From the IMG/VR virus record IMGVR_UViG_2698536610_000001: 47,772 nt of DNA; one strand, written 5' to 3'. Below are positions 4,398 to 47,772 of this stretch, one piece after another; the stretch's first letter is position 1; each line of letters begins with the position of its first letter. Below the pieces are notes generated by a model that did no database searches, had not been told where the DNA came from, and was given only the letters and a program-made list of their open reading frames with translations. Source of the stretch: a virus (taxonomy: Duplodnaviria > Heunggongvirae > Uroviricota > Caudoviricetes). Both the position numbers and the translations under genes were made by a program.

Positions 4398-4582
4398 TGT
4401 GCACATCTTTTTGGCATCAGACGTAAACGAGCCAGCATTGAAACAATGCATATTTTATTTAATAGCTCCCGTTCTTGTTTTCTCTTGTTAATGGCATCTT
4501 CAGTAAATACTGGGTTACTGATAGTGACACCAATTTCAAAACAACCTTCAGACGTATTAACGTTTGGTAATAACGTTTTCAT
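4394..4582 (-). CDS. dicB: Cell division inhibitor DicB
   Basis: 62-aa ORF MKTLLPNVNTSEGCFEIGVTISNPVFTEDAINKRKQERELLNKICIVSMLARLRLMPK…; matches remembered DicB; GAGGA Shine-Dalgarno upstream; dicF immediately upstream on the same strand. Confidence 0.8.
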   Translation of the reverse strand: MKTLLPNVNTSEGCFEIGVTISNPVFTEDAINKRKQERELLNKICIVSMLARLRLMPKRCAQ

Positions 4583-4751
4583 TATCGCGTCCTCAACAAT
4601 GAATTTTGTGATGCGGTGCCTGGTGCCTCCAGGTGACGTTAACCAGTTAACAATTAACGCCGGATACAGAGAATCCACCCATAACACTGTTTTTGGTTTT
4701 AACTGTTCCGCGTGCGCTCAGCCGCATTCACCACATCACAAAATTCACTTT

Positions 4752-4809
4752 AAAAAGGGCGGCAGAGCAGTCACGGAGTAAAACTGATACCGCCAAACGT
4801 CACCAGAAA
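4752..4809 (-). ncRNA. dicF: DicF small RNA (ftsZ-targeting antisense sRNA) with 3' hairpin and U-tract
   Basis: Minus-strand sequence TTTCTGGTGACGTTTGGCGGTATCAGTTTTACTCCGTGACTGCTCTGCCGCCCTTTTT is readable directly; GGCGG…CTGCCGCC stem followed by a T-run; lies between ydfC and dicB as in Qin. Confidence 0.75.
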
Positions 4810-5121
4810 ATTGATAACAGAGGGCGTTGCAGCGGGGTTGTCACTTAAGCGTATGGTCAACCTGACAACCCGGTGTCCTCAACGGGGGAAGGAATAACCC
4901 CGCCATACTTACCGCCGCGCCATTTCGCGGATTGCCACAACCGGAAGCGCACGGTCGACGAAAATTTAACGACAGGCTATCTATGAACCAGCTACCTCGC
5001 CGTGCGCTTTCGCGTTATGGTCTGACTTTTCAGGGAAATATCCTTTCAGTAAACTGTCAGTGCTGGATGCTCACCCGTGTCCGGCACACGCACTCCACCT
5101 CACCCGTGGAGAACTCCTTTA

Positions 5122-5337
5122 TTACCAACCTGTAATCATTCTGGCAATGCTTAATGCTGCTGCTTTTTCCAGATTGGTGATATCCTGCTCCAGAGCGGAC
5201 AGATTTTCAGCCTGCTTAGCCCTGGCTTCATTGGCCCATTTCAGATCCTGCGCTGCATTAATTTTCTGGTGCATCCACTCATAAAGTTCATCATCGGTAT
5301 AGTCTGGCGCGATGATGACGGGTTCTCGTTTCTGCAT
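5122..5337 (-). CDS. ydfC: YdfC-like small protein (leftward early operon)
   Basis: 71-aa ORF with GAGGA SD; position between ydfB-like and dicF matches the Qin dicB operon; sequence consistent with remembered YdfC. Confidence 0.6.
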   Translation of the reverse strand: MQKREPVIIAPDYTDDELYEWMHQKINAAQDLKWANEARAKQAENLSALEQDITNLEKAAALSIARMITGW

Positions 5338-5366
5338 ACTGATTCCTCGCGGTGCTGTTTCGCTTA

Positions 5367-5495
5367 TCAGCCGTTAGATTTTGCCGAACTGGAAAGCGCC
5401 TGTTTAAATTCGTTGAAGCTGAGAGCTTCTTCGCCTTCGGCAAGACCTTCGAAGTATTCTTCGTAAGCCTTTTCCATGATTGTGTCGAAATCCAT
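5367..5495 (-). CDS. ydfB: YdfB-like 42-aa protein
   Basis: Hand-translated minus-strand ORF MDFDTIMEKAYEEYFEGLAEGEEALSFNEFKQALSSSAKSNG (below the track threshold); start is one base from the ydfA stop. Confidence 0.5.
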   Translation of the reverse strand: MDFDTIMEKAYEEYFEGLAEGEEALSFNEFKQALSSSAKSNG

Positions 5496-6540: not shown

Positions 6541-7045
6541 ACAGGCTCGTGAGGCTCTGGATGCCTGGATATGTCGACCAGGAATGACACAGGAGCAGGC
6601 GACGATATTAATCACTGAAGCATTTTGGTCTTTGAAAGAGCGCCCGAACATCGATGTTCAGCGTGTCACAGATGAAGGTGGCGCGGTTGATCAGCGAGCG
6701 CTTGGCGTTAATCGAGTGAAGATATTCGAACGCTGGAAGGCTATTGACACCAGGGATAAGCGTGAAAAGTTCACGGCGCTAGTGCCTGCAATTATGGAGG
6801 CTATCCGGATTAGTGATTTCAGGTTGTATCGTGAAATTAGTGACGGGAAAAGCATTACGTACATGATCGCCGGGTTAAACAAAGAATATGGCGATGTGGT
6901 GGAGTCCGGACTGCTTTTTGCTGATCCTGCCGTAGTGGATCGTGAAACTGACGAACTTATAGAAAAAGCAATTGCTTTCAAACTTGCGTATCGACAGCAA
7001 TACCAACAAAAAGCTGGATGGAATTATGAGCCTTCTTTTTGCTGA
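6524..7045 (+). CDS. Conserved phage early protein in the cII position (possibly YdaT-family)
   Basis: 173-aa ORF overlapping the dicC 3' end by 17 nt; family assignment is tentative and from memory. Confidence 0.45.
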   Translation: MKITPEQAREALDAWICRPGMTQEQATILITEAFWSLKERPNIDVQRVTDEGGAVDQRALGVNRVKIFERWKAIDTRDKREKFTALVPAIMEAIRISDFRLYREISDGKSITYMIAGLNKEYGDVVESGLLFADPAVVDRETDELIEKAIAFKLAYRQQYQQKAGWNYEPSFC

Positions 7046-7991
7046 ACGCCCACTGGTTATAAACACACAGCTTGCGATGAAGATTGGCTTAAATGAAGCC
7101 ATTGTGTTGCAGCAGTTGCATTACTGGTTGAGAGATACTAATTCCGGCATGGAATGTGATGGTGTTCGCTGGATTTACAACACAACGGAACAATGGCTGG
7201 AACAGTTCCCATTCTGGTCAGAGTCAACTTTAAAGCGCGCGTTTGCAAGTCTGAAAACGCTGGGGCTTTTGCGTTGTGAAAAGCTCAATAAATCAAAGCG
7301 CGATATGACCAATTTCTACACGATCAACTATGGGAGCGAGCTTTTAGATGGTGGCAAATTGAGCGAATCCATCGGTTCAAAATGCGCCGCTCCATCAGGT
7401 CAAAATGACACGATGGAAGAGGTCAAAATGAAACGCTCCATTGGTTCAAAACGACCCAATGTCATCGGGTCAAAATGGCCTGATGATCTTACAGAGAATA
7501 CAACAGAGATTACTACAGAGAATAAAAACACTTTTCGTCCGGAAGCTTCGCAACCGGACCCGCAGACGACTGAACAGGATTTTTTAACCCGGAACTCCGA
7601 CGCGGTTGTGTTTAGTGCGAAAAAACGCCAGTGGGGTAGCAGGGAGGATTTGGCGTGTGCGCAGTGGATCTGGGGGCGGATCGTGGGTCTCTACGAACAG
7701 GCAGCCAGTGATGATGGCGAGATCATGCGACCAAAAGAGCCTAACTGGACTGCCTGGGCCAATGACGTGCGCACAATGCGGATGCTGGATGGCAGAAGCC
7801 ACAGACAAATTTGCGAAATGTTTGGTCGGGTACAGCGAGATCCATTCTGGGTAAAAAACATCATGAGCCCGTCAAAGCTTCGTGAAAAATGGGATGAACT
7901 GGTCATCCGTCTGGGGCGTTCGTCTGTACAGCGTTGTGTGAATCATATTTCTGAACCGGATACAGAAATTCCGCCTGGTTTCAGGGGATAA
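7026..7991 (+). CDS. Replication initiator (O-like replisome organiser) with internal origin iterons
   Basis: Start at the internal ATG (MSLLFAERPLVIN…) overlapping the upstream stop; the protein carries IGSK repeats encoded by the iteron array; no separate P/DnaC-like loader follows. Confidence 0.6.
   Translation: MSLLFAERPLVINTQLAMKIGLNEAIVLQQLHYWLRDTNSGMECDGVRWIYNTTEQWLEQFPFWSESTLKRAFASLKTLGLLRCEKLNKSKRDMTNFYTINYGSELLDGGKLSESIGSKCAAPSGQNDTMEEVKMKRSIGSKRPNVIGSKWPDDLTENTTEITTENKNTFRPEASQPDPQTTEQDFLTRNSDAVVFSAKKRQWGSREDLACAQWIWGRIVGLYEQAASDDGEIMRPKEPNWTAWANDVRTMRMLDGRSHRQICEMFGRVQRDPFWVKNIMSPSKLREKWDELVIRLGRSSVQRCVNHISEPDTEIPPGFRG
7374..7478. repeat. Array of five iteron-like direct repeats (GGTYCAAAAYG), putative phage origin
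   Basis: Repeats at about 7374, 7398, 7421, 7443 and 7468, spaced 22-25 bp; followed by A+T-rich ACAGAGAWT repeats at 7490-7530; lies inside the initiator gene, as lambda ori lies inside O. Confidence 0.6.
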
Positions 7992-8031
7992 GTGTTGATT
8001 TCAGGTCATGAGGTAATTTTAAGGGGGACTT

Positions 8032-16277: not shown

Positions 16278-16756
16278 CTGTATGCGATATCATCTGAAAG
16301 TGATGAGTTCCTGCATGCAGGATATTTACAATCGTAAAAACTACACTATGATACCCATAGTGTCAGTTTGTATAAAAATCCTGTTCACGCTGAAGAAAAT
16401 ATTGAGATGCAATTTAATGTTGGTAAATATACCAGCCCCAAAATATTTTATTCAATCTGTTTTTATATAAAGATATTTCAAGTGAATATTAAGAGCATAT
16501 AATATTATTATTGCACGCAGCTATTATAATATAACAGATTAGTTTAATGATTTTTTGCGAGTTAAACACATGCTTTTATAGTTGTGATGCAATGAGATTT
16601 TCCTTATTGTTGAACTGGCGAATATTGATTATCCACCTATACTTACCTGGTGTAACCCCAATGATATCAGGTGGATAATATGCCATACATATGTTCTATG
16701 GTGATGCCTCTAATTAGTTGAATCTGATGTATAATACGGGCTTTTGAGGTTATCTC

Positions 16757-17029: not shown

Positions 17030-17451
17030 CTTCTTCGCCTGTTGCCCATGCTGATGTGGCGCTTATCTGCGAGCTTGATGAGCAATAGAGCTACGTTGGC
17101 AGTAAAGCCCGGCAACACTGGCTCTGGTACGCGTACAACACCAAAACAGGCGGTGTACTGGCCTACACTTTTGGTCCCCGAACCGATCAAACGTGCCGGG
17201 AGCTACTGGCACTGCTTACACCCTTCAACATCGGCATGCTGACCAGCGATGACTGGGGCAGCTATGGCCGGGAGGTGCCGAAGAATAAGCATCTGACCGG
17301 CAAAATATTCACCCAACGCATTGAGCGTAATAATCTGACGCTACGCACCCGCATTAAGCGGTTGGCTCGTAAAATAATCTGCTTCTCACGCTCAGTTGAG
17401 ATCCACGAAAAAGTGATCGGAGCGTTTATCGAAAAACACATGTTCTACTAA
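17030..17451 (+). pseudogene. insB: IS1 insB frame interrupted by an in-frame amber codon
   Basis: The InsB frame (-1 relative to insA) reads …ALICELDEQ*SYVGSKARQHWLWYAYN…; TAG at 17086-17088 replaces the Trp of the remembered DEQWGYVG motif; the distal part (17236-17451) is intact. Confidence 0.55.
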
Positions 17452-17470
17452 TTGGATGCACTACCATCAC

Positions 17471-17847
17471 TTGCATGTCTTGCTATCTTATCTTCAGAGA
17501 AAATAGTGCAAAGGTTTTTATTTGGGTGTCTTAATAGTTTAGGAAGTAAAGTTAAGGCTATTATCCACAAGGATATATCTGCAACATGGAGACTTTGTGA
17601 TATATCTTCAAGACTGTGCCTGAGTGAAAGTTTGTTAAAAAGAAAATTAAAACACGAAGGCTTATCATTTGGTAAACTAAATCTTGAAGAGCGAATGGTG
17701 ATGGCGGAAAGCTTATTAAGCTACAATTTATATTCTGTTGGGAAAGTTGCTGAGATATGCGGTTATGAAAATACGTCATATTTTGTAAGTGTTTTCAGAA
17801 GATATTTTGGTGTTCCTCTCCACAAATATTCATCAAGATTTTTTTAG
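17471..17847 (+). pseudogene. AraC-family regulator, C-terminal HTH fragment (5' end replaced by IS1)
   Basis: The ORF reads out of the IS1 right end; only an AraC-type HTH domain of about 125 aa remains (…YENTSYFVSVFRRYFGVPLHKY…); AT-rich. Confidence 0.5.
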
Positions 17848-18053
17848 AAAAACACATGATGTAACGTGATGCGATTTAATGATTTTGTAATTTTCGTATT
17901 TGATAATTTTATGATGCTTTCAGCTACGCCAGAATAATCGCTGGCGTTTTTCTTTTTGAATAGATGTTCAGGCCTTACGCTAATGTAACTTCTATACCTT
18001 TCCCTCTTCGTTCCGAACCGTGTACACCATCCGTTATTTGCGGAGGTGAGGCT

Positions 18054-18273: not shown

Positions 18274-18618
18274 ATGACTCAAAACTATGAACTGATTGTG
18301 AAAGGGATCCGCAATTTTGAGAATAAAGTTACGGTAACTTTAGCGTTACGGGACAAAGAACGCTTTGACGGTGAAATTTTTGACCTGGACATCTCGCTGG
18401 ACCGTGTTGAAGGTGCCGCGCTGGAGTTTTATGAGGCAGCAGCCAGAAGGAGCATCAGACAGGTCTTCCTGGATGTTGCTGCCGGGTTATGTGAAGGGGA
18501 TGAGCTGTCGCCGGAAAAGCGCCCCATAATTTTAGAGGCGCAGAATGTGTGGATAACCTACAAAGGAAAGCTACCGGGAAGAATTACTGGTTCTCTGAAG
18601 ACTCCGCCGAAATGGTAA
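18274..18618 (+). CDS. YdfR-like (DUF1327) protein inserted between holin and endolysin
   Basis: 114-aa ORF starting 5 nt after the holin stop; position and N-terminus match remembered Qin YdfR. Confidence 0.5.
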   Translation: MTQNYELIVKGIRNFENKVTVTLALRDKERFDGEIFDLDISLDRVEGAALEFYEAAARRSIRQVFLDVAAGLCEGDELSPEKRPIILEAQNVWITYKGKLPGRITGSLKTPPKW

Positions 18619-18856
18619 TTTCACCAGCATATTTTTCTTCCAGTAATACCGCCAGCCACTTGAAAGAATTTTGTTGTTGCTGGGACCATTTGGGGTTGAG
18701 TGATTCAAGCTGGAGCGATGCCAGTGTTGGTTGCATTTGTTCCTTGGGAATTGAGAATGCCAGATATGAAAATGCGACAGTAAGGGCATTTACATCATCC
18801 CGAAGCTTGGAAATGCAGTCGAGCAACTCCTGTAGAGAAATGGTGCTATTGTCCAT
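18584..18856 (-). CDS. Hypothetical 90-aa protein, antisense within the lysis cassette
   Basis: ATG preceded by a strong SD (AGAGAGGA, about 6 nt); convergent with and overlapping the ydfR-like 3' end by about 35 nt; no family recognised. Confidence 0.35.
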   Translation of the reverse strand: MDNSTISLQELLDCISKLRDDVNALTVAFSYLAFSIPKEQMQPTLASLQLESLNPKWSQQQQNSFKWLAVLLEEKYAGEITISAESSENQ

Positions 18857-18961
18857 AAACAATCCTCTCTATTGTATTTAACTATTCCTTGCCTGATTCA
18901 ACAGGCCGGGACAGATAAACATATCCAGGGTTCAGAAACCGATAAATCCTGATAAATATCC

Positions 18962-19504
18962 ATGAACGTAAAAATCAGATACGGCCTGTCGGCTGCCGTT
19001 CTGGCACTGATTGCCGTCGGTGCGCCTGCGCCTGATATTCTCGACCAGTTTCTGAATGAAAAAGAAGGTAACCACACAACGGCATACCGCGATGGTTCCG
19101 GCATCTGGACCATCTGTCGGGGTGCCACGGTGGTGGATGGAAAACCCGTTTTTCCCGGTATGAAACTGTCGAAGGAAAAATGCGACCAGGTTAACGCCAT
19201 TGAACGGGATAAGGCGCTGGCATGGGTGGAGCGCAATATTAAAGTGCCACTGACCGAACCACAGAAAGCGGGTATAGCGTCATTTTGTCCCTATAACATT
19301 GGCCCCGGTAAGTGTTTCCCGTCGACGTTTTATAAGCGGCTGAATGCCGATGATCGTAAGGGGGCATGCGAGGCGATTCGCTGGTGGATAAAAGATGGTG
19401 GGCGTGATTGCCGCCTGACAAAAGGGCAGAAGAATGGCTGTTATGGGCAGGTCGAGCGGCGCGATCAGGAAAGCGCACTGGCGTGCTGGGGGCTGGAGCA
19501 ATGA
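18962..19504 (+). CDS. SAR endolysin (T4-lysozyme-like, phage 21 R-type)
   Basis: N-terminal Ala/Gly-rich signal-anchor (LSAAVLALIAVGAPAP); catalytic E-x8-D-x5-T triad in NEKEGNHTTAYRDGSGIWTICRG. Confidence 0.85.
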   Translation: MNVKIRYGLSAAVLALIAVGAPAPDILDQFLNEKEGNHTTAYRDGSGIWTICRGATVVDGKPVFPGMKLSKEKCDQVNAIERDKALAWVERNIKVPLTEPQKAGIASFCPYNIGPGKCFPSTFYKRLNADDRKGACEAIRWWIKDGGRDCRLTKGQKNGCYGQVERRDQESALACWGLEQ

Positions 19505-20037
19505 AAATTAATCCGGATCTTATAGGCGTTGTCGTTATTGCTGGCCTTTCGGTCGCTCTCGTCAAGAGTTGCTCTCACGCCAGTAATCTTCAGAGCGATA
19601 ACGACGTTCTGCGAAGTGACAACTCTATGCTGGGGCAGGTAATCGCCACCCAGGCATTCAACTTCAATCGATTCAATCAGGTTGCAGAACATGCCAACAG
19701 TCTTAACTCCCTGATCGACACCAGCACCGAAAAAACCGTAATCGAATACCGGGAGATTCTCCGCCGTGAAAAAACCTGTGATCTGCCTGTTCCTGCTGAT
19801 ATCGCTGGTGGGTTGCTCGAATACACGTACCGTTTACGTGCCAGCGCCATGCACACCGATACCGGCAGACCTAATGAAGCCTATGATCGTACCGCTACCA
19901 CCAGCTCAATGACCTACTGCCAAGCTGTCTTGTGGATTAAGCCGCTACTGGCGTTGATAGAAAAAGGAAATAATAATTTTTCGAGTATTCGTGAAATTGA
20001 TGAGTTGCGTTACAGACCATCTGAGCATGGCCAGTAA
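19501..20037 (+). CDS. Rz i-spanin
   Basis: ATG overlaps the endolysin stop; N-terminal TM (LIGVVVIAGLSVALV) then helical periplasmic domain; embedded Rz1 frame. Confidence 0.8.
   Translation: MKINPDLIGVVVIAGLSVALVKSCSHASNLQSDNDVLRSDNSMLGQVIATQAFNFNRFNQVAEHANSLNSLIDTSTEKTVIEYREILRREKTCDLPVPADIAGGLLEYTYRLRASAMHTDTGRPNEAYDRTATTSSMTYCQAVLWIKPLLALIEKGNNNFSSIREIDELRYRPSEHGQ
19766..19912 (+). CDS. Rz1 o-spanin lipoprotein, embedded in the +1 frame of Rz
   Basis: Hand translation: (GTG)KKPVICLFLLISLVGCSNTRTVYVPAPCTPIPADLMKPMIVPLPPAQ; lipobox LVGC; Pro-rich; GGGAG SD 10 nt upstream. Confidence 0.7.
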   Translation: MKKPVICLFLLISLVGCSNTRTVYVPAPCTPIPADLMKPMIVPLPPAQ

Positions 20038-20111
20038 GGTTGCAGGAAATTTAAAATCTGGCGATGAAATTTAATATTAGAAATTCATTGCCTAGTGAGA
20101 TTAATAATGGG

Positions 20112-20157
20112 CATCCCTTTGTGACGATAAGCTTTAACACATTCACAAAGGGATATT
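20112..20157. terminator. 12-bp perfect inverted repeat between convergent Rz and the 230-aa gene (possible terminator)
   Basis: ATCCCTTTGTGA…(loop)…TCACAAAGGGAT; no clean U-tract, so terminator function is uncertain. Confidence 0.35.
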
Positions 20158-20205
20158 TAATATAGGGTGGTTAATTCCCACTTGCTGTGGTGTTTAGGGG
20201 GTAAT

Positions 20206-20898
20206 TCAAATCTTATCTAACTCATTATAGGCTTCGATAATAAAAATTCTGATTTTAATAAGGCATGATTCAATGAAAGGAATTACTTCATGGTCATTCC
20301 CATGGAATCTTATTTTTTTCTCTTCGGTAATGACTATGTTTAAAGGTACACCATTACCACTTCTTTGTAATTTCCCATTTTCGAAAGTAAAGTCTTCTAA
20401 TTTTTTGCCATTGATGTGGTTGTTTTTAAAGAGAATTTTTGCTGAGCTTCCTGCTGTGATTAAACCAAAACCATCTACGCTCACACTTAGGTCTTTAACA
20501 GAACTCTCTTCTCTTAAGGGGATTGGTTGTCTGTGCTTTACTTCATTAGTGAGATTACACATCATTTCCAACCAAGATTCGCCAGTGTGATAATCCTGTA
20601 TAGAAGTAAAAATTTTATATAATGGAGAAGATGATGGTGGGTTTATTTTTAGCGTCTTTGAGAAAAATTTATCAATAAACTCTTTTTTTCCGTAAGGGAA
20701 ATATATTTTGGGGCGCTCATCATTACTGCGTGGAGAAATATATTTATCATAGGTATCATTAGCGAGATACTCTAAGGAACTTCGTAAGTTTTCCAAAATA
20801 GCTTTGACTTTTACAGGCTTGATATGCTGTGTCTGTCTCATTATGTCAAGACTTTCTTCAACTTCTTGCAATAAGTCTAACGAGCCTTCTCTAGACAT
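20206..20898 (-). CDS. Hypothetical 230-aa protein in an AT-rich island (moron)
   Basis: Long ORF in strongly AT-rich DNA where chance ORFs are unlikely; opposite to phage late transcription, in the position lambda uses for bor; no motif recognised. Confidence 0.6.
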   Translation of the reverse strand: MSREGSLDLLQEVEESLDIMRQTQHIKPVKVKAILENLRSSLEYLANDTYDKYISPRSNDERPKIYFPYGKKEFIDKFFSKTLKINPPSSSPLYKIFTSIQDYHTGESWLEMMCNLTNEVKHRQPIPLREESSVKDLSVSVDGFGLITAGSSAKILFKNNHINGKKLEDFTFENGKLQRSGNGVPLNIVITEEKKIRFHGNDHEVIPFIESCLIKIRIFIIEAYNELDKI

Positions 20899-21479
20899 AC
20901 AGGTAATTCTCCTTTATGAATTTTCAACATGTTATAACTAATAATATATTTATCATATAACTGTATGAATAAATTGTGAGATTAGTAATGCAAGTTTCTA
21001 TCCATAGTGTTCTCTAAGTACCCGCTTCCATCATGTTGTTACGGACGGTATGGCTAAAACAAAGCACCTGAAGTTAAACGTTCTGAACTTTATGCTCGTT
21101 GAGCATATGAATTATCTGTAACCCGATGCGCTGGTTGTGGTTCACATTGATGGTCGTAATCAGCAGCGGTGGTGCCTGATGGCATGCAACTTCTTACTTA
21201 TAAAACTTCGTATGGAATTGTTGCCATAACGAGCCCAGCTTAGCAGTTTTTAATGGGTCCTCCCGGCAGTGTGTCCTGCCACGGGGCGGGAGCGTCGCGG
21301 AAAAAGGCTAGTTTTTGCATTTCCATGGCGGCGGCAGCATGTTTGGTAATTTATTGATAATTAAAAGTTATTTCTCTTTTCACCTGTACAATATTTTTTT
21401 CTCCCTGTCATTAGACCAGTTTGCAATTAATTGAAATATATAAATAAACATGATTTTCACCTGCCAGATGGAGTTGCTT

Positions 21480-22007
21480 ATGTCAAATGTGAGCGGGATC
21501 GGTGATGCTTATTACTGGAGTGTTTTTAAAATCGCTGAGGCCTTTGGGCTTCACCGGGACACAGTAAAAAAACGGCTCCTCGCGGCCAACACTCCTGTGG
21601 CTGCGACTGTCAGGGGGAACCCCGTTTACGCCCTGCAGCATGTCGGGCCCGCCCTGTTTAGTGTGAAGCATGAGGCAGCAGACTCTGTTCATGATCCATC
21701 CCGTATGGAGCCGAAAGAGAGAAAAGACTGGTACCAGTCTGAAAATGAAAGGATCAAGCTGGAAAAGGAGCAGCGAAAACTCATCCCAGTTGATGAAGTA
21801 GTCATCGTCTATTCGTCCATGAGAAAGGCTGTCGTCCAGGTTCTGGAGACAATTCCGGATGTTCTTGAACGCGATTGCGCCCTGACTCCTCAGGCCGTCG
21901 GCGTTGTACAGCAGGCCATTGATGACCTGCGATACACTCTTCAGGAAAAATCCTACGAGGCTTGTGCTGCTGAATTAATTCCTGATGAGGAAGGAGAGAG
22001 TCTCTAG
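21480..22007 (+). CDS. Terminase small subunit (Nu1-like)
   Basis: N-terminal HTH-like segment then acidic C-terminus; immediately upstream of the large terminase; GGAG SD. Confidence 0.7.
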   Translation: MSNVSGIGDAYYWSVFKIAEAFGLHRDTVKKRLLAANTPVAATVRGNPVYALQHVGPALFSVKHEAADSVHDPSRMEPKERKDWYQSENERIKLEKEQRKLIPVDEVVIVYSSMRKAVVQVLETIPDVLERDCALTPQAVGVVQQAIDDLRYTLQEKSYEACAAELIPDEEGESL

Positions 22008-46200: not shown

Positions 46201-46488
46201 TCGTTTCGTGATATGCCGCAGAAACGTTGTATGCAATAACGTTCTGCGGTTGGCTGATGCACTTTCGAGAGTGTATTGAATAATTTCAAGCCGTTATTGT
46301 TTTTACGCGTAACACCATGAAAAGACTGCTTATCTGTTGGGGTGTTTTTTGGGGCATATATGGGACAGAAATAGGCCACAGATAGATAGTAAGATCGAAC
46401 TCAGGATGCTTTTGAAAAAATGTAACTATCTGAAAAAACCTAGAAAGCGCCAAGGAAACCACAGAATGAGAAAAAACATCTGTGAATT

Positions 46489-47772
46489 ATGGATTTCCAG
46501 TTATATTCGCTCGGCGCAGCGTTAGTGTTTCATGAAATATTTTTTCCTGAATCATCAACGGCAATGGCGTTAATTTTGGCAATGGGAACCTACGGTGCAG
46601 GTTATGTGGCGCGTATTGTCGGAGCATTTATTTTCGGCAAAATGGGCGACAGAATAGGGCGTAAAAAAGTGCTCTTTATTACCATCACCATGATGGGGAT
46701 CTGTACCACCTTAATTGGTGTGTTACCGACCTATGCACAGATTGGTGTTTTTGCCCCCATCTTGCTGGTGACGCTGCGTATTATTCAGGGGTTGGGTGCA
46801 GGTGCGGAAATTTCCGGTGCCGGTACGATGCTGGCGGAATATGCACCAAAAGGTAAGCGCGGAATTATCTCCTCATTTGTAGCTATGGGAACTAACTGCG
46901 GAACCTTGAGCGCAACGGCAATCTGGGCCTTTATGTTCTTCATTCTCAGTAAAGAGGAACTGCTGGCGTGGGGATGGCGTATACCGTTCCTGGCGAGCGT
47001 TGTCGTGATGGTCTTTGCTATCTGGTTACGTATGAATCTGAAAGAAAGCCCGGTCTTTGAGAAGGTTAATGACAGCAACCAACCCACAGCAAAACCTGCA
47101 CCTGCTGGTAGCATGTTCCAGAGCAAATCCTTCTGGCTGGCAACAGGGCTGCGTTTTGGTCAGGCGGGTAACTCCGGGTTAATTCAGACTTTCCTTGCAG
47201 GCTATTTAGTGCAGACGTTATTGTTTAACAAAGCAATTCCAACAGATGCATTGATGATTAGTTCGATTCTCGGCTTTATGACCATTCCGTTCCTTGGTTG
47301 GTTATCCGATAAAATTGGTCGCCGGATCCCGTATATTATTATGAATACCTCCGCGATTGTGCTGGCATGGCCAATGCTTTCTATCATTGTAGATAAAAGC
47401 TATGCCCCGAGCACCATTATGGTTGCACTGATTGTGATTCATAACTGTGCGGTGCTGGGATTATTTGCTCTGGAAAACATTACCATGGCAGAAATGTTCG
47501 GCTGTAAAAACCGCTTTACCCGGATGGCCATTTCTAAAGAAATTGGTGGTCTTATCGCTTCCGGTTTTGGTCCTATCCTGGCGGGTATTTTCTGCACCAT
47601 GACGGAATCCTGGTATCCGATCGCCATTATGATCATGGCATATTCAGTGATTGGTTTAATCTCTGCGCTGAAAATGCCAGAAGTGAAAGACCGTGATTTA
47701 AGTGCGCTGGAAGACGCTGCGGAAGATCAACCGCGTGTTGTAAGAGCTGTGCAACCTTCCAGAAGTCTGTAA
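46489..47772 (+). pseudogene. ydfJ: MFS transporter (metabolite:H+ symporter family, ydfJ-like), 5'-truncated at the prophage junction
   Basis: 427-aa ORF beginning inside the conserved N-terminal (E)xxDFxLY region (MDFQLYSLGAALVF…) with no first TM segment; G+C rises to host-like levels; ydfJ is remembered as the Qin insertion target. Confidence 0.65.

Follow-up and report, generated by a model that had tools for sequence, protein, structure and literature searches.

Background

HepS (STM14_3211), encoded by the Gifsy-1 prophage of Salmonella, is a solo HEPN abortive-infection protein that is inactive at rest, is triggered by tail-tip proteins, and cuts the anticodon loops of tRNA (Sargen et al. 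2026, PMC13043305). The HEPN RNase Tha, found in prophages of S. aureus, is triggered by tail proteins and is partly restrained on prophage induction by antisense transcription (Rostol et al. 2024, PMC11087260). A parallel of position is given by phage lambda, in which bor (46459-46752, minus strand), a classic moron for a 97-amino-acid (aa) outer-membrane lipoprotein of serum resistance, lies directly after Rz/Rz1 and before cos, antisense to late transcription. Here we describe a 230-aa gene that occupies the same slot in the same orientation in a lambdoid Escherichia coli prophage, the IMG/VR virus record IMGVR_UViG_2698536610_000001 (47,772 nucleotides (nt); "the window" below means the whole of this stretch). 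The gene, referred to as the cargo gene, is very probably a real moron gene; its product belongs to a large protein family, probably has a fold derived from that of HEPN according to structure prediction, and may quite possibly be an undescribed single-gene anti-phage defence.

The canonical motif of HepS (R100-x4-H105) is missing from the cargo protein, and no PDB chain matched it significantly by sequence or by Foldseek. Tha-1 and Tha-2 are 301-aa proteins with a C-terminal HEPN domain, the canonical motif RNSIMH, and the inhibitor gene ith, none of which was seen in the window. In comparison with Bor, the cargo protein is unrelated in sequence and in fold, is predicted to be soluble, and has no lipobox. 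With regard to position, an earlier note on this DNA, made from the sequence alone, had compared the place of the gene to that used by bor, and the lambda coordinates given above agree with it.

The slot between the lysis genes and the packaging genes

The features of the window around the cargo gene are as follows.

19501-20037, plus strand: Rz-like i-spanin gene, last gene of the lysis cassette and left flank of the slot (PHROG 214 'Rz-like spanin', E 2e-54; RefSeq coding sequence (CDS) WP_000700651.1)
19766-19912: open reading frame (ORF) for the Rz1 o-spanin lipoprotein, embedded in Rz in another frame, with a lipobox in its start MKKPVICLFLLISLVGC
20113-20154, no strand: perfect inverted repeat between the convergent Rz and cargo genes
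20206-20898, minus strand: 230-aa cargo gene with an ATG start (RefSeq WP_023567552.1 'hypothetical protein'; PHROG 13652)
20899-21046, minus strand: putative upstream control region of the cargo gene, delimited from the sequence and the allele alignments
21047-21225, plus strand: decayed 5' fragment of a glycosyltransferase gene (two collinear tblastn high-scoring segment pairs (HSPs))
21255-21323, plus strand: first part of the conserved cos region and right edge of the slot (matches to E. coli genomes)
21480-22007, plus strand: gene for the small terminase subunit (DUF1441, Nu1-like), right flank (PHROG 141, E 8e-65; RefSeq and phage annotations)
22016-24115: TerL gene, after that of the small terminase

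The gap between Rz and the terminase genes is thus made up, in order, of a hairpin, the intact cargo gene, its upstream region, a glycosyltransferase relic, and cos. The 230-aa ORF opposite to late transcription that the earlier note describes was found where it had been placed. In the sense of Hendrix and Juhala, a moron is an extra gene of deviant base composition that separates genes which are neighbours in related phages; further marks are a promoter and a terminator of its own and expression from the repressed prophage. Both the insertion and the base composition are seen for the cargo gene: the content of guanine plus cytosine (GC) is 0.32-0.35 over ~20050-21100 versus ~0.50 in the lysis and terminase genes, and phages cdtI and Tritos, which have the same cos and terminase, carry other cargo in the gap between Rz and cos (orf60 in cdtI; cspI, a cspB-like second csp gene, ynfN, gnsB, ybcV, and ybcW in Tritos). 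The island was found in 97 of 5,426 complete E. coli genomes, versus ~2,100 genomes with the adjoining piece of cos. The moron architecture that the earlier note had proposed is upheld by these data, among them the comparison with related prophages lacking the insert for which it had asked. The same note had described an AT-rich island of about 1.4 kb; the low GC content stands, but the AT-rich stretch is only ~1.05 kb long, and is followed by the glycosyltransferase relic and, from 21255, by cos.

The right edge of the slot was assigned by comparison of genomes. About 2,000 E. coli genomes match the window only from position 21255 onward, and the first base in the records of both cdtI and Tritos corresponds to position 21284. 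We therefore let the conserved cos region start at 21255, which leaves 20038-21254 as the variable cargo slot. A putative cohesive-end site lies at ~21284-21295 (GGGCGGGAGCGT). In NZ_AP040249.1, homology extends over the lysis genes and the island into cos as far as position 21323, where it ends. The same island and left part of cos seem to be joined there to a different packaging module, and the end of homology at 21323 suggests recombination breakpoints within the cos region.

The relic at 21047-21225 corresponds to the first ~90 codons of a 485-aa glycosyltransferase gene, with a frameshift and stop codons. The two HSPs, to residues 21-56 and 60-80/90, scored 27.7 and 29.3 bits, and all of 300 shuffled sequences scored 20.4 bits or less. 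An intact copy of this gene is found divergent from the cargo gene in Enterobacter prophages (L003 and L060), and the intact Enterobacter protein matches PHROG 1579 'glycosyltransferase', of the moron category, with E 1e-251. The relic reaches the boundary at 21255 or stops just short of it, and a deletion or recombination may thus have joined the cargo to cos. An insertion sequence, IS1, interrupts the 1.4-kb island in 2 of the 97 E. coli islands (NZ_CP080172.1, strain PK8566, and NZ_CP138399.1); in PK8566 it lies in the 3' part of the cargo gene, of which a shortened CDS of 600 nt remains. We regard the region as a cargo slot of lambdoid prophages between the lysis cassette and cos, which holds one intact moron and one wrecked moron, the glycosyltransferase gene.

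Sequences on either side of the cargo gene

A Shine-Dalgarno sequence with a good match (AAGGAG, 20914-20909) precedes the ATG of the cargo gene, and a candidate -10 element (TATAAC) lies at 20936-20931, with TATAA[CG] retained in four alleles. The conserved upstream block extends to ~21025: nucleotide identity to the closest Enterobacter allele (L060) is 79% across 20203-21025, a homology block that consists of the ORF and ~127 nt upstream of it. In Enterobacter, this upstream region is the intergenic stretch from which the cargo and glycosyltransferase genes diverge.

On the other side, a 12-bp perfect inverted repeat had been noted between the cargo gene and Rz at 20112-20157. This repeat was confirmed, with arms at 20113-20124 and 20143-20154 (12 nt each, 100% complementary, with a loop of 18 nt), and it folds better than dinucleotide shuffles do (-17/-19 kcal/mol; z = -2.7 for the plus strand and -4.7 for the minus strand). 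The hairpin has no U-tract, the terminator scan made no call there, and the Rfam scan of the island returned chance-level miRNA matches only, which fell on the hairpin. It lies outside the homology block common with the Enterobacter alleles, and in the Citrobacter alleles, in which the two stop codons are 5 nt apart, it has no counterpart; on these two grounds it was rejected as a part of the cassette. The hairpin does not define the cargo unit; it might act locally as a weak terminator in both directions, or bind a protein.

Distribution of the family and loci of the homologues

The description of the gene as an orphan in the earlier note has to be withdrawn. The cargo protein matches PHROG 13652 (function not assigned) from end to end (E 3e-159). 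A single-sequence search returned 74 clusters, mostly from Enterobacteriaceae, and a profile search of a database of 1.84 billion representatives (50% identity clusters) returned 1,057 representatives at E ≤ 1e-3 and 512 at E ≤ 1e-10, nearly all of them 220-250 aa long. Matches in genomes were obtained from Gammaproteobacteria, Neisseria, Bacteroidota, Deinococcales, Planctomycetota, Nitrospirae, the candidate phyla radiation (CPR), and archaea, and the habitats of the family include sea and soil. Eight longer members were considered for domain fusions and were uninformative; one had a weak match to DUF6941, and the rest probably have mis-called starts. No NCBIfam model was found for the cargo protein, and its accession and peptide fragments were not found in the searchable literature or in the searchable parts of the DefensePredictor supplements. 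A name for the family was likewise not found in the searchable literature.

The pairwise ratio of nonsynonymous to synonymous substitution rates (dN/dS) is 0.05-0.11 among the Enterobacterial alleles, with dS saturated, and the cargo gene is under purifying selection. Because of this saturation, only overall purifying selection can be stated; a test for diversifying selection in the beta domain by dN/dS was uninformative for the same reason and was dropped. The GC content of the alleles is 0.32-0.36 throughout (0.42 in Pseudomonas), though the hosts have higher GC.

Eight homologues with 46-83% identity, from Enterobacter (three), Cronobacter, Citrobacter, Raoultella, Atlantibacter, and Superficieibacter, were compared with the window. 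In all nine Enterobacteriaceae prophage contexts, the gene follows a spanin or endolysin gene, precedes the packaging genes, and is antisense to the late genes. The surrounding modules vary: the endolysin is of the GH19 or the Phage_lysozyme type, the spanins also differ, and the packaging genes are of the lambda type (window), the HK97 type with HNH/Terminase_4/TerL_ATPase, the type with Terminase_3/Phage_portal_3, or another type. The more distant homologues of Vibrio and Pseudomonas (25-33% identity) are also prophage cargo antisense to their neighbours, in other slots. Beside the homologue, the slot between the lysis and packaging genes holds extra cargo, namely a glycosyltransferase gene and an integrase gene in Enterobacter and a GNAT acetyltransferase gene in Atlantibacter, and since genes of the latter two kinds are also found in it, the slot looks like a general cargo hotspot. 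The integrase gene lies at 4465-5469 of locus L070, and the acetyltransferase gene at 6783-7349 of loci L072 and L073. In prophages of the Enterobacter cloacae complex (L003-L005, positions 6691-8000), no gene was called in the ~1.3 kb that separates the homologue from the lysis genes.

The cargo gene is a solo gene with no conserved partner: all-against-all clustering of the ORFs at 44 distant loci, some of which lie at non-phage chromosomal sites, gave no recurrent neighbour save in the syntenic Neisseria loci. The genes within two genes of a homologue include those for PARIS AriAB (E 4e-197), MzaA, type II methyltransferases, RT_UG29, BrxH, DpdF, PsyrT, MazF, IS110 transposases, and a terminase, a mixture that suggests variable or defence regions, as counted without a background rate.

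The Neisseria homologues (~30% identity) lie inside a yejBEF-like oligopeptide ABC-transporter operon, beside a gene for an AMP-binding enzyme; their position in the operon differs by species (in N. perflava the homologue is elsewhere in the same operon), and in some loci the stop codon overlaps the start of an ATPase gene by 4 nt. The 515-aa ATPase so overlapped by one of these homologues (P0072) was considered as a partner, its PADLOC matches being mad3, AriA, and AbiLi. It was rejected as a defence partner, because in Pfam it is an oligopeptide ABC-transporter ATPase (ABC_tran twice and oligo_HPY) and belongs to the adjacent permease genes.

Structure prediction and conserved residues

In HEPN domains, the motif Rx4-6H, in which the next residue is usually N, D, or H, stands at the end of helix 3, a conserved acidic residue is found in helix 2, often as Ex3[KR], and inserts between helices 2 and 3 are common (PMC3710099). 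A beta-hairpin directly follows the motif in Csx1, and the Parep1/8 families have kept the His and lost the Arg, have other conserved basic residues, and are possibly still active (PMC3710099).

The structure of the cargo protein was predicted with AlphaFold2 from an alignment of 28 sequences (pLDDT, 88.3; predicted template modelling score (pTM), 0.72). The model has helices at residues 3-23, 28-53, 72-82, 92-98, 109-122, and 205-229, and a beta-rich segment at 128-198. The four-helix up-and-down bundle of HEPN is seen in it, with segment 54-108, which contains the YFPYG loop and Q101, as an insert between helices 2 and 3. The sole hydrophobic window of the protein is an amphipathic C-terminal segment, predicted as a helix in the model and probably helix 4 of the bundle, and the model is a soluble bundle. 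The best structural matches of the model are the HEPN toxins of HEPN-MNT modules, and Foldseek against BFVD returned one viral protein, A0A514TZW7 (E 3e-5). On the model, the fold of the cargo protein is probably HEPN-derived.

Conservation was examined in 142 sequences of the family. P68 and H122 are invariant, and K32, R39, S40, L42, Y44, F67, F79, Q101, W109, N118, and K121 are conserved in at least 90%. The end of helix 3 (109-122) carries the motif T117-N118-x-x-K121-H122, with H122 in all 142 sequences, K121 in 141, and N118 in 132; the spacing is exactly that of R-x4-H, an N follows the first position, and the His is invariant. In helix 2, the acidic residue expected of HEPN is found (E36 in 123 of 142, D/E43 in all 142) together with R39 (137 of 142), the spacing being Ex2R, not Ex3[KR], and E36, R39, S40, D/E43, Y44, and D48 fall on one face of the helix. 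The most variable part of the protein is the beta insert, with a mean entropy of 3.10 bits versus 1.8 in helices 2 and 3 and a length of 57-103 aa.

Proposed function and alternative explanations

Purifying selection, the patchy occurrence over phyla, the lack of a partner, residence in prophages and variable regions, conserved antisense placement, low GC content, and a HEPN-like core with an invariant His beside a hypervariable domain together point to an abortive-infection system. On this analysis we consider a role of the cargo protein as a single-gene anti-phage defence to be a serious possibility, and an RNase mechanism a more tentative one. The course of events that we infer, from lysogen expression through trigger and nuclease activity to the defence phenotype and an antisense off-switch, would be as follows. 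In the lysogen, at a time when the late operon is off, transcription of the cargo gene would start within the AT-rich DNA upstream of it. The protein would act alone as a divergent HEPN-type nuclease, using His122 with Asn118 and Lys121 and, from helix 2, Glu36, Arg39, Ser40, and Tyr44, and would stay inactive as long as its variable insert, the beta-rich one that separates helices 3 and 4, has not sensed some component of a superinfecting phage. The activated protein might then cut RNA (tRNA, rRNA, or mRNA) and abort the infection, as the solo HEPN proteins HepS and Tha do. On prophage induction, Q-antiterminated late transcription would cross the cargo gene in the antisense direction, so that its expression would be damped and self-killing reduced. 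The whole of this picture, in which the gene is the E. coli member of a very widespread solo immunity family with a non-canonical HEPN site (T-N-x-x-K-H, with Lys or a helix-2 Arg replacing the motif Arg), a hypervariable beta sensor, and antisense silencing at lysis, is less probable than not.

A number of results weigh against a HEPN-type defence protein. At the position of the HEPN motif Arg (117), the family has Thr in 102 of 142 sequences, Val in 14, and Asn in 13, and never a predominantly basic residue, so that the motif Rx4-6H is missing from it. The spatial clustering of the conserved residues is suggested from helical periodicity only. Foldseek against the PDB gave nothing significant, and a score of ~8 was also reached by unrelated bundles (the P1 domain of CheA, and vinculin); for these reasons the fold assignment is likely but not proven. 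No match of the cargo protein to Pfam was obtained at E ≤ 10, nor any HEPN or recurrent Pfam family in the 142 members at E ≤ 0.1; PADLOC-DB 2.0 had no family for it, with single chance-level matches among the 142 members; no PDB chain was found with the single sequence, and the profile gave two chance-level matches to non-HEPN chains (E 0.25 and 1.2). The relatives obtained from a profile search over 5.8 billion proteins were all named 'hypothetical protein' and had no Pfam domains, and a tblastn search of 50,697 cultured-phage records returned no homologue. Promoter-like sites upstream of the gene, including 20980->20952 and 20969->20941, occur at chance frequency (7 found versus 5.4 expected in shuffled sequence), and AT-rich DNA is often silenced by H-NS in E. 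coli. Because the defining Arg is missing and no sequence-profile link was obtained, the protein cannot simply be counted as a member of the HEPN superfamily, and 'HEPN-like' is the best term. The statement of the earlier note that the protein has no recognisable motif holds for Pfam, NCBIfam, PADLOC, and PDB sequences; the family, however, is marked by a clear signature and by a predicted fold of HEPN-like form.

The missing motif Arg also speaks in favour of a different explanation, in which the protein is a non-catalytic HEPN-like binder or regulator of nucleotide, RNA, or protein that changes host physiology or the interplay of phage and host in the lysogen, for example through superinfection exclusion by sequestration or by blocking a host or rival-phage system. 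We consider this unlikely, though worth keeping in view: an invariant His122 in the 142 sequences, with Lys121, Asn118, Arg39, and Gln101 almost unchanged from phylum to phylum, is what an active site would show, and the Parep1/8 families keep the His without the Arg and are possibly still active (PMC3710099). The cargo family resembles Parep1/8 and Csx1 in the loss of the motif Arg with other basic residues present (here K121 and R39) and in an insert right after the motif (here a beta insert), and differs from them in that it has no detectable sequence relation to either and that its insert is a whole beta-rich domain, not a hairpin.

A factor of lysogenic conversion or fitness apart from phage defence, as bor is, for instance for an avian or gut niche, would accord with the slot and strand of the gene, with the poultry origin of many isolates that carry the island, and with the glycosyltransferase moron that the adjoining relic represents. 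It is nevertheless improbable, since the protein has no signal peptide or lipobox, has an acidic N-terminus (MSREGSLDLLQEVEES), and is modelled as a soluble bundle, and since the occurrence of the family in marine, soil, CPR, and archaeal genomes is contrary to a virulence role in a host niche.

A gene of the phage life cycle, such as a lysis regulator or an accessory factor of packaging or cos, could be proposed from the constant location at the junction of lysis and packaging genes in Enterobacteriaceae. Such a role is very hard to reconcile with the other data: the gene always runs against the late operon, occurs in no more than 97 of the ~2,100 E. coli genomes with this cos (<5%), is absent from cdtI, Tritos, and all of the cultured-phage records searched, is truncated by IS1 in two otherwise intact islands, and has distant copies at chromosomal sites outside phages. 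A selfish toxin or addiction element, that is, the HEPN toxin of a toxin-antitoxin pair stabilising the prophage, is brought to mind by the best structural matches and can be set aside almost entirely, because no adjacent MNT antitoxin gene or other conserved partner was found at the 44 distant loci or in the prophage contexts, and because the ORF antisense to the cargo gene and internal to it (20273-20590, 105 aa) is not conserved in other alleles. The same ORF had been considered as a hidden inhibitor gene and was rejected on this ground.

If the defence reading of the cargo protein is true, a large immunity family would be added for which there is no model in Pfam, NCBIfam, or PADLOC and which is annotated as 'hypothetical' everywhere. 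It would be the second stand-alone sensor-effector of the HEPN type from Enterobacterial prophages after HepS, and the catalytic arginine of HEPN would be dispensable or relocatable. The way in which a prophage could escape its own abortive-infection gene might, as a simple model, lie in the strictly conserved antisense position behind the lysis cassette. The junction of lysis and packaging genes in lambdoid and HK97-like prophages looks like a hotspot that could be mined for cargo, as the hotspots of P2 and P4 were. If the protein should have no phage phenotype, the family would be one more conserved moron with its role open.

Other features of the window

No tRNA gene was found in the window with ARAGORN. 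Further AT-rich patches lie upstream of the holin gene, at 16300-16750 and 17350-17950 (GC 0.29-0.33). An ORF in the second of them (17452-17847) has matches only to the C-terminal half of PHROG 1450 and to a transcriptional-regulator PHROG (AraC-like helix-turn-helix tail); probably it is a further moron, whole or truncated. Between the holin and endolysin genes, a 92-aa ORF on the minus strand (18584-18862) is antisense to a gene of the ydfR family (18274-18618); its equivalent in RefSeq is WP_000370545.1, a hypothetical protein, and it is another small gene that runs backwards in the late operon.

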